Positions 12,148 to 63,517 of a stretch of DNA of 64,000 nucleotides are shown here, one piece after another (the stretch's first letter is position 1; each line of letters opens with the position of its first letter). The stretch comes from Candidatus Poribacteria bacterium (GTDB taxonomy: Bacteria; Poribacteria; WGA-4E; WGA-3G): NCBI GenBank assembly GCA_964291315.2, contig OZ219753.1, positions 2,240,001-2,304,000 of the forward strand. The letters are read 5' to 3'. A model generated the notes under the pieces. The model ran no database searches, was not told where the DNA came from, and saw only the letters and a list, made by a program, of their open reading frames with translations. The position numbers were made by a program, and so were the translations under genes.

Positions 12148-12948
12148 ATGACAGATTTGTTTAAAAGTGTAGGAGTAATGTACGCGAGTCTCATGGCAGT
12201 CTTTTTGCTGATAGTGCTGCCCGCCCTTGCAGACATTGATTCCAAGAATATCATGGGAATGTGGCTCTTTGACGAAGGGAAAGGCGGAGTCGCCACGGAC
12301 TCATCAGAACAAGAAAATGATGGCGACATCCACGGCGCAAAGTGGGTAGATGGGAAATTTGGCAAAGCCTTGGAATTTGACGGGGTTGGCAATTGGGTTG
12401 AGGTGCCGCACTCACAGAGCGTTGGGTTTAAAGCAGGCGTGTCATTCACAATTACCCTTCATTTCAAAGGTACGAAGGTCGGTGGATCGCTCGTCGGAAA
12501 GAACTATGAAGATACATCGCAAGCACTTCCGTGGTACCTACTTTGGGACAACGGGTCGGATAACAAAGTAACGCTCTATCTACGCGACAGTGCAGCAACT
12601 AGTTTCCGAGCAGACGGCACAACCGTTATCGGCGACGACAAATGGCACTTCATCGCCGGTCGCGCGGATGCCGACACAAGTAAGGTTTCCATATGGATAG
12701 ACGGCAAAATGGAAGCCGAAGTAGATTTTAATGAAAAAGAAGGGTACGGTACCAGTGAAGGGGTGTTTCATATCGGACGGCACTACGACCGGTTTACGGC
12801 TGGCATCATTGATGATGTTGCTCTCTTTAACGTGGCTTTAGAAGAAGAAGATATGGACGCAATTATGAACAATGGCGTTGAAACCGCTGCCGCAGTTGAC
12901 CCTATACGTAAATTGACGACGACGTGGAGCAGAATCAAACGCCAATAG
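12148..12948 (+). CDS. Secreted LamG/concanavalin A-like domain protein with C-terminal TTW motif
   Basis: Signal peptide; WLFDEG, GKFGKALEFDG, WHFIA, GIIDDV; ends AVDPIRKLTTTWSRIKRQ; AAGGAGG RBS. Confidence 0.85.
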   Translation: MTDLFKSVGVMYASLMAVFLLIVLPALADIDSKNIMGMWLFDEGKGGVATDSSEQENDGDIHGAKWVDGKFGKALEFDGVGNWVEVPHSQSVGFKAGVSFTITLHFKGTKVGGSLVGKNYEDTSQALPWYLLWDNGSDNKVTLYLRDSAATSFRADGTTVIGDDKWHFIAGRADADTSKVSIWIDGKMEAEVDFNEKEGYGTSEGVFHIGRHYDRFTAGIIDDVALFNVALEEEDMDAIMNNGVETAAAVDPIRKLTTTWSRIKRQ

Positions 12949-12958
12949 CGGGGAAATC

Positions 12959-14068
12959 ATGAAACGGATACAGGCAGGGCTAGCCTTAGCACTTCTGCTA
13001 TTTGCAGGACTCAATTGCGGAACAGAAAGCCCTATTGAGGAAAAAGGAGACGTTGTCGGGATCGAAACCCAGACAGGCATGTTGCAAGGAGAGATACAAC
13101 CCATTGAAGGTATCCTGATTCAGGTCCGCTTACTCAGAAACGGACAACTCTTAACGCAGCTCGAGACACAAGCAACTTATGAACTTGAGGGTGTCGAAGC
13201 CGGAAGTTACACCCTCCGGATATCAGCCAAGGGCTATGAAACCAGAGATATCCGTGTCACAGTCGTTGCCGGACAAAGTGTTTCCGTGGATAAAGTGACG
13301 CTTGCAGCGTTAGAATCTCCACTCTCACATCTACGGGGAAGACTAACCGATGTGACGAGCAGTGCCCCAATTTCGGAAGTTCATCTCCAGCTTATCGATA
13401 AAATGGGCAAAGTCTACGAGGCATTAACAACAGAAGCAGGCGTGTTCGCCTTTGAAAACCTCCCGGTAGGGCAAGGCTTCACCTTGAAAATCGAACATGA
13501 GGATTATGAGCGTACCGAGGTGGCGGTGCAACCGATACCTGAAGCCGAGACGTTGGCGATCGATCTGAAACTGATCCCGCTGCCGGCAGTGGAGGCATTG
13601 GCCCCAGGTCAAGGCTTGAACATTGGCAGCCGGGCCCCTGATTTTGAACTGTCCGATGGTAACGGCGAAGGGCATAAACTTGCTAATTACATCGGGAAAG
13701 AAAACGTGGTTATCGTCTTCTTTCGCGGTGTCTGGTGACCCTTTTGTAGAGGACAACTCGTTGAGTTGCAAAAGAACTATTTAGCAATCAAAGCCGCCGG
13801 TGCAGATCTTATCGCGATTAGTTCTGATGGTGAACCCGCGACGCAACAGAACGTCCAAAACCAAGGACTTACATTTGTTGTGTTGGCAGATCCGGATGTG
13901 ACAACTATTGCCGATTACAATGTTGTTGATCCAGCCAATAAGCGGATCGCGCGTCCCGCGTCTTATGTTCTGAAGAAAGACGGAACAATCGCTTGGAAAT
14001 CCCTTGAGGGTGTGGCGATGCGGACGCCGACGGCACAAATTCTCACAGAATTAGGTAAGCTTCAATGA
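12959..14068 (+). CDS. Predicted selenoprotein: lipoprotein-type signal, two carboxypeptidase-regulatory-like beta-sandwich domains and an AhpC/TSA (Prx-like) domain, Sec at TGA 13736-13738
   Basis: ORFs 12959-13738 and 13766-14068 are in frame; read-through gives FFRGVW-U-PFCRGQLVELQK (UxxC in place of CxxC) and 369 aa. Confidence 0.85.
13741..13774 (+). promoter_or_regulatory. Putative bacterial SECIS hairpin
   Basis: CTTTTG/CAAAAG lower stem; CAACTC-GTT-GAGTTG upper stem-loop starting 15 nt after the UGA. Confidence 0.6.
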
Positions 14069-15191
14069 AATCTCACGATTCAGTCACAGCAAGCATCATT
14101 GCTGATAGCCAAGAGGCGGAACACGACCGAGATAAACTTAGCCGACGACAGTTTTTAAATCGACTGGTTTCCGTGGGGTTGGAGGCATCGGTGGTAGTCT
14201 CACCACGTTTCCCGCACTTGCTCAGACGCGTAGTGGACAATTACAACCTGAAAACACACAAACAGTCCCGCTGACACCGGTTGTTGAGGCTGTCGGTAAA
14301 GAGGTTTGGGAGGACGACCAGCTCAATGAAGGCGCGGTTAGTGAACTGCTCGATCAGGCGATGATGAAACTCACTGGCCGCTCCTCTGCTAAAGAGGCGT
14401 GGCGAGATATTGTTCTCCCTGACGATATTGTGGGCATAAAAATCAATCCACTCGGCGGGCCTGACCTCAGGACGCATCCTATCATTGTTGACAAAATCGT
14501 TGAAGGGTTATATGGTGCTGGTGTCCTCAACAAACAGGTTATTATTTGGGATCGGTTTGAAAAACACCTCTTGAACGCTGGTTACCCGATTAAGCAAGAC
14601 GCTAGTGAGGTCCGAACTGTTGCTTCCGACACAGAAGGTATCGGGTATGACAACGAGGTGTTTTACGAAAGTGAAAAGGATAGCATCACCCGGCGAGAAA
14701 ATGGAAGTACCTTCTCCCGGTATTCTCGGATCGTCACACAGATGGTAGATGTGCTGATTAATGTTCCCGTCCTGAAACACCATGCAATGGCAGGAGTGAG
14801 CGGATGTTTAAAGAATTTAGCATTCGGTAGTGTCGATAATACGCGCAGGTTCCATGGAAAACCGCTCTATTGTAATCCGGCGATCGGTGAGATTTTGGAA
14901 CATAAGGTGTTGAAACAGAAATTGGTTCTGAATATTGTCGACGGCTTGCTCGCCTCATTCGACAAAGGGCCGACATATCATGCCGAAAGCACATGGCAAT
15001 ATGGCAGTCTCTTTGTGAGCGCCGATCCGGTTATCCTTGATGTGCTAGTGCTTCAGACCGTTAACCAGAAGCGCGAGGAGATGGACTTAGATTCCGTGTC
15101 TAAGTTCTCCAACCATATCAGCAACGCTAGTGCGCTAGGTTTAGGAACAAATACTCTGGATCAAGCGGATCTTCAGAGAATTGAGGTTTAA
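14065..15191 (+). CDS. Tat-exported DUF362 family protein, interrupted by a 1-nt frameshift at GGGG 14175-14178
   Basis: SRRQFL Tat motif in 14065-14274; adding one G gives ..VSVGVGGIGGSLTTFPALA|QT.. in frame with 14361-15191 (GIKIN, THP, INVPVLKHH..GVSGCLKN, DPV.LD). Confidence 0.75.
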
Positions 15192-60970: not shown

Positions 60971-61837
60971 ATGCTTGACGATAAACATTTAGAACACCAG
61001 CTCACTGAGGAACAGCGCGGCGCTATGGATGAGGATGGATACTTTATCGTTGAAAATGCCCTGCCATCAGTTCTCGTTGAACGTCTTGAAGTACGAGTGG
61101 ATAATATCTACCAGGCCCATCTTGACGCTGGTTACGATCCATACACCCAAAATCAGCTGAGCGAGCATAACAATTTCTTCTATCCGAATTTCCTCGGCAA
61201 GGATCAGGTTTTCGTGAATATTGTGGACTGGTACAAAACTTTCCCGAAAGTTTGGGGTATCTTGGGCTGGAATATCTACTCTTATCACAGTCACTTTATC
61301 ATTACACCTCCGCGCCCTGAGAGGGTTCGCCATAAACCTGCCCCGCTGGGCTGGCACCAAGATAGCGGACGCGTTAATATCGAAATTGAAAGCTCACCCC
61401 GACCGCGGCTCTCTATCAAGGTGGTCTATTGGTTATCTGACTGCTCGGAGCCCGGCCGCGGTAACTTTTATATCATCCCAGGGAGCCATTTGTGGGATAA
61501 ACTAGAGGATCGTCCAACAGACGGATCACTACCGAAGGGCGCGATACCTGTCTGCTGTAAGCCCGGGGATGCGGTTTTCTTCGATCGGCGTTTGTGGCAC
61601 ACACGCAGCGAAAACGATTCAAACATCACTCGCAAGGGGCTCTTTTACGGATACGGCTATCGATGGCTACGGAGCAAAGATAATATGACAATTCCAAAGG
61701 AGATGTTCGAGCGAAATGATCCAATTCGCCAGCAGCTGCTTGGCGGGGGGACAAATGCAAACGGGCATTTTTCACCAAGAAACGCAGATGTACCTCTGAA
61801 GGTATGGCTCGAAGAAAAAGGTGTCCTCGTAAATTGA
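60971..61837 (+). CDS. PhyH family dioxygenase
   Basis: WHQD, IPGSH, PGDAV.FDRRLWH..S.N....RK. Confidence 0.9.
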   Translation: MLDDKHLEHQLTEEQRGAMDEDGYFIVENALPSVLVERLEVRVDNIYQAHLDAGYDPYTQNQLSEHNNFFYPNFLGKDQVFVNIVDWYKTFPKVWGILGWNIYSYHSHFIITPPRPERVRHKPAPLGWHQDSGRVNIEIESSPRPRLSIKVVYWLSDCSEPGRGNFYIIPGSHLWDKLEDRPTDGSLPKGAIPVCCKPGDAVFFDRRLWHTRSENDSNITRKGLFYGYGYRWLRSKDNMTIPKEMFERNDPIRQQLLGGGTNANGHFSPRNADVPLKVWLEEKGVLVN

Positions 61838-61887
61838 ACGAACAAGACTTTGAAACTAAGACAAAATACTCGTGGAGGTACAATATA

Positions 61888-62913
61888 ATGTTTCTAACGC
61901 GGTTGAATACAAGTATCTGGGCTGCTATTTTCATGACAGTCCTCATACTCCCAGCAGCTTCAGAGGAGGAAGCAGTGACAACTCCAGATAGGCTAAAAGT
62001 GGGGATGATCGCCCCCGATTTTGCACTGAAAGATGAACAAGGACTCGAACGAAATCTCAGTGACTACTTAAGTCAGAAAAACGTAGTTCTTGCCTTTTAT
62101 CCAAAAGACTTCACAGGTGGATGAACAACGGAACTCAACTCGCTCCGGGACAGTTTGAGCGAGATAGAAGCAACCGATAGTGTTCTCTTCGGTGTGAGCG
62201 TTGACTCTGTAGAATCACACAAACGGTTCTGTGCAGAGCAAAAATTCGGGTTCTCCCTACTGGCAGATACCGATTTTAAGGTGAGCAGGCAGTACAGCGG
62301 GATCATCGAAAACTTCAAAGCGTCAAAGCGGGCAACCTTTATCATAGATAAAGCGGGATACATTCGTTCTATTGACAGAGAAGTTAACACCAAAACACAC
62401 GGGGAAGATGTCGTTGCCCAGCTAAAAGAGGTGCTACCACAGATAGAAGTCGGACAAAACGCCCCCGATTTTATTGCAGTTGACGGTGAGGGCAAAACGT
62501 ACCAACTGAGCCAATTTCGTGGAAAGAAGAAGATAGTGCTCGCGTTCTATCCGCGCGACTTTGGACGTGGCTGAACAGCGGAAGTTTGCTCGCTCCGTGA
62601 TGAGTCGAGTAGTTTTGCCAAATACGACGCTCAGGTTTTTGGAATCACGACGAATGACGCAGATTCCCATCAGAAATTTGCCGAAGAAAACCAGTTGAAC
62701 TTCCCGCTTTTGGTAGATATAGGTCGCAATCTTTCGCTCCTATACGGGGCAACAAATGCCCTTGAAGGAAGGATTGCAAGATTAACCGTTATCATTGATA
62801 AAGAAGGGAAGATTCTGGCAATTGATAAAGAAGTTAACCCTAGTACACACGGGACAGATTTAGCAGATTTCTTTAAAAACTTGGAAACATCGAACGAATC
62901 TGATGCCCCGTAA
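61888..62913 (+). CDS. Predicted double selenoprotein: signal peptide plus two tandem BCP/PrxQ peroxiredoxin domains, Sec at TGA 62122-62124 and 62572-62574
   Basis: Three track ORFs are one frame; FYPKDFTGG-U-TTE and FYPRDFGRG-U-TAEVC match BCP FYPxxxTPGCTxE; GGAGG RBS before ATG 61888; 341 aa. Confidence 0.88.
62139..62163 (+). promoter_or_regulatory. Putative SECIS hairpin 1
   Basis: CTCGCTC-(CGGGACAGTTT)-GAGCGAG, starting 14 nt after the UGA. Confidence 0.55.
62587..62611 (+). promoter_or_regulatory. Putative SECIS hairpin 2
   Basis: TGCTCGCTC-(CGTGAT)-GAG[T]CGAGTA with one bulged U, starting 12 nt after the UGA. Confidence 0.55.
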
Positions 62914-63517
62914 GACTTTATCAACAATAACTGCCCGATTCGCCTGGGGTGTCTCTGTCGTTTTTAGCCCTTTTTTAGTCCCAATCGCAACAACCATCGG
63001 CGTAGTTCAAAAACATGCCGCACCTCAAGACCTTTACCGATGGATAGGGATTGTTGTGTTGTTTGTCACCGTGTTCCCGGTACTATCAATTGCAGTAATG
63101 GCGCGACTTGCCAAAGTCAGCGATTTACATCTAAAAAATAGAGAAGAACGGTTCCTACCTTTATGCTGCACGCTCGTTAGTATGATTGTAGGAACCTTTC
63201 TATTGCAGGAACTCGGCGCGGCTCGTGAAATTGTTTGGGCAGGTATCGCTTATATCATCAACTGCGTTATTTTTCTGGCCATTACCCTGACGTGGAAAAT
63301 CAGTTTTCACAGCAGCGTCGCCACCGGCTGTATTACCGTGCTGGTGATGCTTGTTAACCTACAATTGGGGTGGCTATTTCTGCTGATCCCACTGATTGCT
63401 TGGGCACGAGTCTATCGAGAACGCCATACACTCCTGCAAACCGTTGTCGGTGCCGTGTTAGCCCTTGGCAACACGTCCATTGTTTTGTATTTAGCCAAAC
63501 TCGGGGGAAGTGGTTAG
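62903..63517 (+). CDS. PAP2-like multi-TM membrane protein
   Basis: SD....REER..P, WKIS.H, WARV....HT..Q...G. Confidence 0.75.
   Translation: MPRKTLSTITARFAWGVSVVFSPFLVPIATTIGVVQKHAAPQDLYRWIGIVVLFVTVFPVLSIAVMARLAKVSDLHLKNREERFLPLCCTLVSMIVGTFLLQELGAAREIVWAGIAYIINCVIFLAITLTWKISFHSSVATGCITVLVMLVNLQLGWLFLLIPLIAWARVYRERHTLLQTVVGAVLALGNTSIVLYLAKLGGSG

Follow-up and report, generated by a model that had tools for sequence, protein, structure and literature searches.

The window analysed here is a 64,000-nucleotide stretch of DNA from a Candidatus Poribacteria metagenome-assembled genome (MAG) lineage (G000:C4:2240001-2304000; all positions follow the numbering of the window), and our subject is a gene on its plus strand that conventional open reading frame (ORF) calling breaks into pieces. 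Mechanical reading of the plus strand under translation table 11 gives three ORFs (61804-62124, 62155-62574 and 62695-62913), and reading through with TGA taken as selenocysteine (Sec; U in protein sequence) gives a single frame of 341 residues at 61888-62913 (+) that ends in TAA and contains exactly two TGA codons. The first-pass annotation of this DNA had proposed that the three fragments form one frame interrupted by two TGAs, and this is borne out, the fragments being mechanical products of table 11. On the basis of its frame, its Pfam matches and its orthologs, we annotate 61888-62913 (+) as a complete coding sequence (CDS; 341 amino acids plus TAA) for a tandem two-Sec protein of the PrxQ/BCP type.

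A Shine-Dalgarno-like GGAGG, read from the sequence, occupies 61874-61878 (+) and precedes the ATG (61888) by 9 nt, and residues 1-25 (61888-61962 (+); MFLTRLNTSIWAAIFMTVLILPAAS) form a hydrophobic segment; the ribosome-binding site and signal-peptide-like N-terminus described previously were thus both found. This segment (mean Kyte-Doolittle value of 2.4 over 13 amino acids) is present in 38/38 orthologs, and in the window it is accompanied by R5 and ...PAAS|EEE; the nearest single-domain Cys relatives have signal-like N-terminal segments too. It is a putative signal peptide of the Sec type (in the secretory sense) or, equally possibly, an uncleaved membrane anchor. Within the earlier description of an extracytoplasmic two-domain, two-Sec protein, the two domains and the two in-frame UGA codons are hence observed directly, and export or membrane anchoring is a prediction from the hydrophobic N-terminus only.

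Pfam matches AhpC/TSA in two stretches of the read-through protein (234.3 bits), and a scan of the genome scores the two domains at 113 and 112.3 bits (cut-off of 26), with one TGA in each. The NCBIfam BCP model NF006960 is also matched (173.5 bits summed over two stretches, cut-off of 140); the PrxU model NF040737 falls short of its threshold (119.6 bits, cut-off of 270), and the protein is therefore not a PrxU equivalog. Domain 1 (residues 35-182; 61990-62433 (+); Pfam AhpC-TSA over residues 38-161) and domain 2 (residues 183-335; 62434-62892 (+); assigned by profile and by its identity to domain 1) are both predicted to adopt the PrxQ/BCP fold and share 41% identity over 142 residues without a gap. 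An AF2 model has a pLDDT of 86.9 and a pTM of 0.84, with residues 1-31 disordered (pLDDT <50), and its best Foldseek matches (3drn, 5epf, 1xvw, 5ima and 3ixr; BCP, AhpE and PrxQ chains) reach a probability of 1.00, a TMt of 0.83-0.90 and 29-35% identity, each covering one domain; no solved chain among the Foldseek matches listed spans both domains.

The canonical peroxiredoxin (Prx) active site, PxxxT/SxxC, includes a catalytic Thr, and atypical 2-Cys PrxQ enzymes carry a resolving Cys at position +5 from the peroxidatic residue. In the window, UGA-1 (62122-62124 (+)) encodes the putative Sec79 at the peroxidatic position of domain 1, where orthologs have TGA and the tandem homolog P0022 has Cys, and UGA-2 (62572-62574 (+)) the putative Sec229 at the equivalent position of domain 2, placed by ortholog alignment and followed by Cys234 (U-x4-C). 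The proposal that each TGA sits at the peroxidatic Cys of a BCP motif is accordingly upheld by alignment with the Cys of P0022 and of other Cys homologs. The motif of domain 1 is FYPKDFTGGUTTELN, with Asn at +5, and its key residues P72, T76, U79 and R148 are invariant across 39 sequences, giving a PxxxT/SxxC-type motif with U in place of Cys. The motif of domain 2 is FYPRDFGRGUTAEVC, with Cys at +5; among its key residues (P222, G226, U229, C234 and R298), P222, U229 and R298 are invariant in the same 39 sequences, such that the catalytic Arg (R148 and R298) is invariant in both domains. That domain 2 lacks the canonical Thr (PRDFGRGU) is a feature absent from the first-pass annotation.

Variation at the +5 position was assessed in a set of named loci (the best 80 of 363 confirmed loci, from Candidatus Poribacteria MAGs or entries labelled 'uncultured bacterium'), 79 of which were read by motif search and one, L117, by eye. 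Position C234 of domain 2 is Cys in 78/79 of the motif-search loci, and the +5 residue of domain 1 in these 79 is C in 39, Q in 18, N in 17, K in 3 and S in 2. The previously noted pairing of Asn at +5 in domain 1 with UxxxxC in domain 2 therefore holds in the window and needs refining beyond it: Asn is limited to the sub-clade of the window, most of the genus has Cys and other families have Arg, Gln or Lys.

Conservation of both TGA codons and history of the tandem

A six-frame read-through search of 61 genomes of relatives (threshold of 1e-20) returned matches over both domains in 54, at 50-85% identity, and a single-domain form with one TGA only in four, all belonging to genus g3. The two-domain matches each have two in-frame TGAs, apart from those in G037 and G048, which have three. 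In a phylum sample of 176 genomes, matches were found in nearly all members of families f1 (110/111), f2 (11/11), f3 (29/29) and f4 (6/7), all of one Poribacteria order; among the rows listed in that scan, each one covering both domains has at least two TGAs, and of the three with a single TGA, two are partial matches and the third is a variant. Families beyond f1-f4 gave weak matches only (1e-17 to 1e-29). U occupies both sites in all 80 named loci (the best 80 of 363), and both columns consist exclusively of TGA in a codon alignment of 38 orthologs. Orthologs in which the frame ends at a TGA and decays behind it, as the first-pass annotation considered, are not what we found; both TGAs and the downstream frame are kept.

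Substitutions at codon positions 1/2/3 run at fractions of 0.25/0.17/0.50 before TGA1 (that is, UGA-1), at 0.24/0.16/0.54 between the TGAs and at 0.25/0.16/0.52 after TGA2. The protein-coding signature is hence alike in all three segments, and the aligned codons indicate purifying selection across both UGAs. Contigs of four sequencing runs from one study, two of which may be the source sample, show zero difference at either TGA and read neither TGT nor TGC there. Two of these represent a variant strain, which differs at 29-33 positions elsewhere; three of the differences are third-position changes immediately behind TGA2. A third in-frame TGA occurs in L038 (G037:C38) and in the rows of G048 and G087; in G037 it falls after the hydrophobic N-terminal segment and ahead of domain 1, and is either a third site of recoding or an upstream stop, in which case translation would start at the following Met.

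A tree of the individual domains places the domain-1 sequences in one clade (100/99) and the domain-2 sequences in another (100/94), the latter also taking in the g3 single-domain Sec form and the C-terminal domain of a variant. The sister group of the domain-2 clade (98/91) consists of C-terminal domains with Cys from other tandem proteins. These clades indicate that the tandem formed once, before families f1-f4 split, and that both Sec sites have been kept since. P0022 is the only Cys/Cys tandem found, and its own two domains are sisters (100/99), from which we conclude on phylogenetic grounds that it is an independent duplication; P0131, P0142 and P0154 have Cys at the domain-2 site. We do not claim that the Poribacteria tandem arose by duplication of a unit that already contained Sec, given that the tree is undecided and that the SECIS (Sec insertion sequence) core shared by the domains could reflect the S-L-R-D peptide.

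Several related forms were seen alongside the two-Sec tandem. In L127 (G125:C108:3005-4710) and P0019-P0021, domain 1 is degenerate (FCPTDFLIGS), with Ser at the peroxidatic site and the catalytic Arg lost; domain 2 of L127 retains Sec and no signal segment is visible in the locus, and the database entries P0019-P0021 end at the TGA, at 200 aa. The form found in genus g3 (L130/L046 in G053, in two copies; G041, G047 and G038) is a single-domain Sec-PrxQ with U-x4-C in a 163-aa frame, without a hydrophobic N-terminus and nested within the domain-2 clade. A different tandem two-Sec protein is encoded at L129 (G043:C1:1503037-1505247) in family f2 and at G060:C1:655535-656542; it has a signal peptide, two AhpC/TSA-like domains that each carry F-Y-R-G-x-x-U-P-F-C and a C-terminal extension of ~190 aa, is 29% identical to the query and has no match in G000 at 1e-20.

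Selenocysteine machinery and SECIS-like hairpins

The genome of the window encodes selA (515 bits), a tRNA-Sec(tca) on C2 with selB directly adjoining (C2:61507-61780) and selD (357 bits; G000 C4:721940-722863(-)), the last with one in-frame TGA of its own; the four components that the first-pass annotation had suggested looking for (selA, selB, selC and selD) are therefore all present. The hairpin downstream of the TGA in selD has the CUCGCUCC arm in common with the Prx SECIS.

In bacteria, a UGA at the position of a catalytic Cys followed by a 3' hairpin is the signature of Sec. Such a hairpin is present after each of the two TGAs and conserved in orthologs. SECIS-like hairpin 1 (62139-62163 (+)) starts 14 nt after its UGA codon and consists of a 7-bp stem (CUCGCUC/GAGCGAG) with an 11-nt loop (-10.6 kcal/mol); SECIS-like hairpin 2 (62587-62611 (+); UGCUCGCUC / loop CGUGAU / GAG-U-CGAGUA) starts 12 nt after its codon and overlaps the codons of C-S-L-R-D-E-S-S. 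Across 38 distinct sequences, 91.8% of the cells of the domain-2 hairpin are paired, versus 34-47% with a slid partner; two pairs are changed on both sides (CG to UA and GC to AU) and 5/9 pairs are invariant. The same type of structure fits domain 1 of other families (80.7% paired versus 25-42% when slid), and in the genus of the window it has been replaced in domain 1 by the 7-bp stem at the same place. All seven in-frame TGA sites found in the genome (selD, four other AhpC/TSA-like genes and the two described here) are followed by a hairpin that starts ~10-20 nt downstream. The hairpins of the tandem gene are located on conserved C/N-S-L-R-D-E/S codons, and since Cys homologs share the S-L-R-D peptide, coding constraint contributes to their conservation; the pattern nonetheless exceeds chance, in that no two-domain ortholog seen has lost either TGA.

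Other selenoprotein candidates occur in the same genome, in which 6/14 AhpC/TSA matches carry a TGA. One lies within the window at 12872-14158 (+), with an AhpC/TSA match at 13622-13996 and an in-frame TGA in FFRGVW-U-PFC (U-x-x-C type) followed by a hairpin; ahead of AhpC/TSA come a lipoprotein-like signal (MKRIQAGLALALLLFAGLNCG) and a further ~230 aa that form an additional N-terminal domain. Three further AhpC/TSA-like genes have one TGA at a redox motif and a hairpin (C4:1108602-1108973(-), C1:471388-471774(+) and C1:367055-367390(+), with motifs listed as GT-U-GIC, TW-U-PNS and SW-U-GC).

The tandem gene is flanked upstream by a PhyH-family dioxygenase (60971-61837 (+)) that uses TGA as its stop and is conserved within the family only, and downstream by a membrane protein (62903-63517 (+)) with a PAP2 match that is weak and below cut-off. 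The ATG of the latter lies inside the 3' end of the Prx gene, the two frames sharing 11 nt, such that co-transcription is possible; a promoter and terminator scan found nothing on the plus strand, with counts not above those of shuffles. This arrangement (PhyH upstream and PAP2-like protein downstream) is common only to the window and one genome of the same family.

Readings of the locus

We show here that the gene is intact, that it has been under purifying selection across both UGAs, that the Sec machinery is present and that the hairpins are conserved. Judged from sequence, we consider it likely (probability of about 0.8) that this is one functional gene for a 341-residue selenoprotein with an N-terminal export signal or anchor and two Sec-peroxiredoxin domains. 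SelB and tRNA-Sec would recode each UGA by means of its own stem-loop, 12-17 nt downstream and inside the CDS on the S-L-R-D codons. Domain 1 (PxxxTxxU and Arg) would reduce peroxides through a selenenic acid and, as it is without a +5 Cys in the clade of the window, would need an outside thiol or domain 2 for resolution. Domain 2 (U-x4-C and Arg, with Gly at the Thr position) may form an intramolecular selenenylsulfide in the manner of an atypical 2-Cys PrxQ. The probable site of action would be outside the cytoplasm of the sponge-symbiotic Poribacteria cell.

A number of observations weigh against this reading. Regarding the hairpins, the single-sequence energies of both are no better than those of shuffles (z of -0.6 to -1.3), the covariation scores are weak in that shuffles reach them in 54/500 cases for domain 2 and 14/500 for domain 1, most pairs are invariant and also under coding constraint, and an Rfam scan of 61700-63100 returned no SECIS family, only a chance snoRNA match (E of 8.2). 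Regarding distribution, 3/61 relatives, with genomes 78-85% complete, have no match at 1e-20, and the G051 ortholog L045 (G051:C4:42613-44109) carries an extra TAA in domain 1 (…GISGID*KSHH…) with the remainder of its frame and both TGAs intact; either L045 is a pseudogene or its MAG, in 340 contigs, was misassembled at this point. The domain tree leaves the sister status of domains 1 and 2 undecided. A synteny search for a reductant partner found that the neighbourhood is not shared across families f2-f4, and because the neighbours are conserved within one family only, no reductant partner can be inferred from them. Lastly, the Thr position of domain 2 is Gly (P222-R-D-F-G226-R-G-U229) in 80/80 loci of the family of the window, and this replacement of the canonical Thr makes the peroxidase activity of domain 2 uncertain.

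The last of these points opens the way to a different view of the same two-Sec protein, in which labour is divided: domain 1 would be peroxidatic, and domain 2 would serve as a resolving or relay domain or as a thiol/selenol-disulfide oxidoreductase acting on extracytoplasmic substrates. The uniform Gly in domain 2 while domain 1 keeps PxxxTxxU everywhere, the nearly fixed +5 Cys of domain 2 beside a dispensable one in domain 1, and the defined inter-domain arrangement suggested by the pTM would all fit such a division, as would the tandems of other bacteria, in which a degenerate Cys-less N-terminal domain accompanies an active C-terminal domain and sub-functionalization is evident. However, families f2-f4 retain the domain-2 Thr (FYPKDFTGGU, FYPMDMTPGU), such that domain 2 seems ancestrally to have been an ordinary peroxidase, and Arg298 is invariant; we regard the division as unlikely.

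Far less probable is that the TGAs are decoded as Trp, Cys or Gly, through a changed code or near-cognate suppression, in place of Sec. Database calls for full-length orthologs on short contigs (P0002-P0018) do show W at both sites, but these are best explained by gene callers having applied a TGA=W table, as is likely for contigs only 1-4 kb long. Elsewhere in this genome TGA serves as an ordinary stop: release factor 2 (RF2) is present (497 bits, cut-off of 370), TGA closes 426/1960 stop-to-stop frames of at least 300 codons, and the upstream PhyH gene stops at one. The complete selA/selB/selC/selD set, the placement of both TGAs exactly on the redox-active Cys position and the conserved hairpins that follow also count against a standard amino acid. 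The statement that standard pipelines miss the gene is correct on both counts, as the ORFs are either split or, on short contigs, called with Trp at TGA. A pseudogene, or three separate small genes with termination at each TGA, is the least probable reading of all, for although table 11 yields three ORFs and one ortholog has the extra TAA, the fragments have no function-compatible starts, no fragment that stops short of the active-site residue could act as a peroxiredoxin, purifying selection is identical on all three segments, and neither TGA varies even between families at 50% identity, in which nearby codons change.

Known relatives and biological meaning

The two-Sec selenoprotein that we favour shares its fold with the BCP/PrxQ proteins (E. 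coli BCP-type NF006960; Xanthomonas/Xylella PrxQ; Sulfolobus Bcp1/Bcp4; M. tuberculosis BcpB and AhpE), along with the PxxxTxxC-type motif and conserved Arg of domain 1 and the +5 Cys of domain 2, but it differs from them in having two domains per chain, Sec at both sites, a hydrophobic N-terminus and Gly for Thr in domain 2. The accessible text of the 2026 review PMC13188914 gives one Sec and one domain for the Sec-peroxiredoxin 'Prx' (PF00578, TxxU) and PrxU of Eubacterium acidaminophilum; these likewise have Sec at the peroxidatic position and a bacterial SECIS, whereas the protein described here has two Sec, two SECIS elements and a tandem architecture. The same portion of that source includes bacterial double selenoproteins (MbdU, a HUGP/GUXX-star fusion and arsenite methyltransferase fusions with 2-3 Sec), which share with the present case the presence of more than one UGA-Sec per bacterial ORF; as far as that portion goes, they are other folds or heterologous fusions, in contrast to the repeated peroxiredoxin domain and repeated SECIS seen here. 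Prx fused to other domains appears in the available part of the GOS paper. The Cys tandem BCPs from metagenomes (P0022 and P0126/P0131/P0142/P0154) also have two AhpC/TSA-type domains in ~340-400 aa, often with a signal-like N-terminus, but contain Cys, or an N-terminal domain without any redox residue, and are 28-33% identical to the query. Within the accessible portions of the literature searched we found neither a tandem two-Sec peroxiredoxin nor a Poribacteria selenoproteome, and a related form could be present among the additional fusion selenoproteins of PMC2398784 (Figure S1 and Dataset S1). The Sec-Prx family and multi-Sec bacterial proteins are thus already known, and only the tandem two-Sec form is new.

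A bolder proposal, which we put forward as speculative and unlikely, is that the protein constitutes a self-contained extracytoplasmic two-selenium relay, in which domain 1 reacts with peroxide and its selenenic acid is resolved by the Sec/Cys pair of domain 2 in the same chain, and that tandem Sec proteins have been built repeatedly. Were this so, domain 2 would have given up its catalytic Thr in the family of the window and would pass oxidizing equivalents to a membrane reductant system; tandem Sec-thioredoxin-fold proteins would have been built repeatedly in Poribacteria and perhaps in other sponge symbionts (L129 being a second, unrelated tandem U-x-x-C pair); and each tandem would have originated through duplication of a domain along with the SECIS inside its ORF.

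Because annotation fragments the gene or reads its TGAs as Trp, a conserved antioxidant enzyme of a whole sponge-symbiont order would be missing from gene catalogues, and calls of Trp at Sec positions would amount to a systematic annotation artefact that hides selenoproteins. Two independent UGA-to-Sec events per ORF, each with its own coding-region SECIS, would be useful for studying SelB processivity and the spread of Sec sites by duplication, and the loss of Thr beside Sec would provide a natural test of how far selenium can substitute for the geometry of the canonical Prx active site. With at least seven in-frame TGA sites that are followed by hairpins, of which six fall in AhpC/TSA-like domains, Poribacteria appear to be heavily invested in a selenium-based redox defence, which is probably extracytoplasmic and bears on the survival of these symbionts in the oxidative interior of the sponge.

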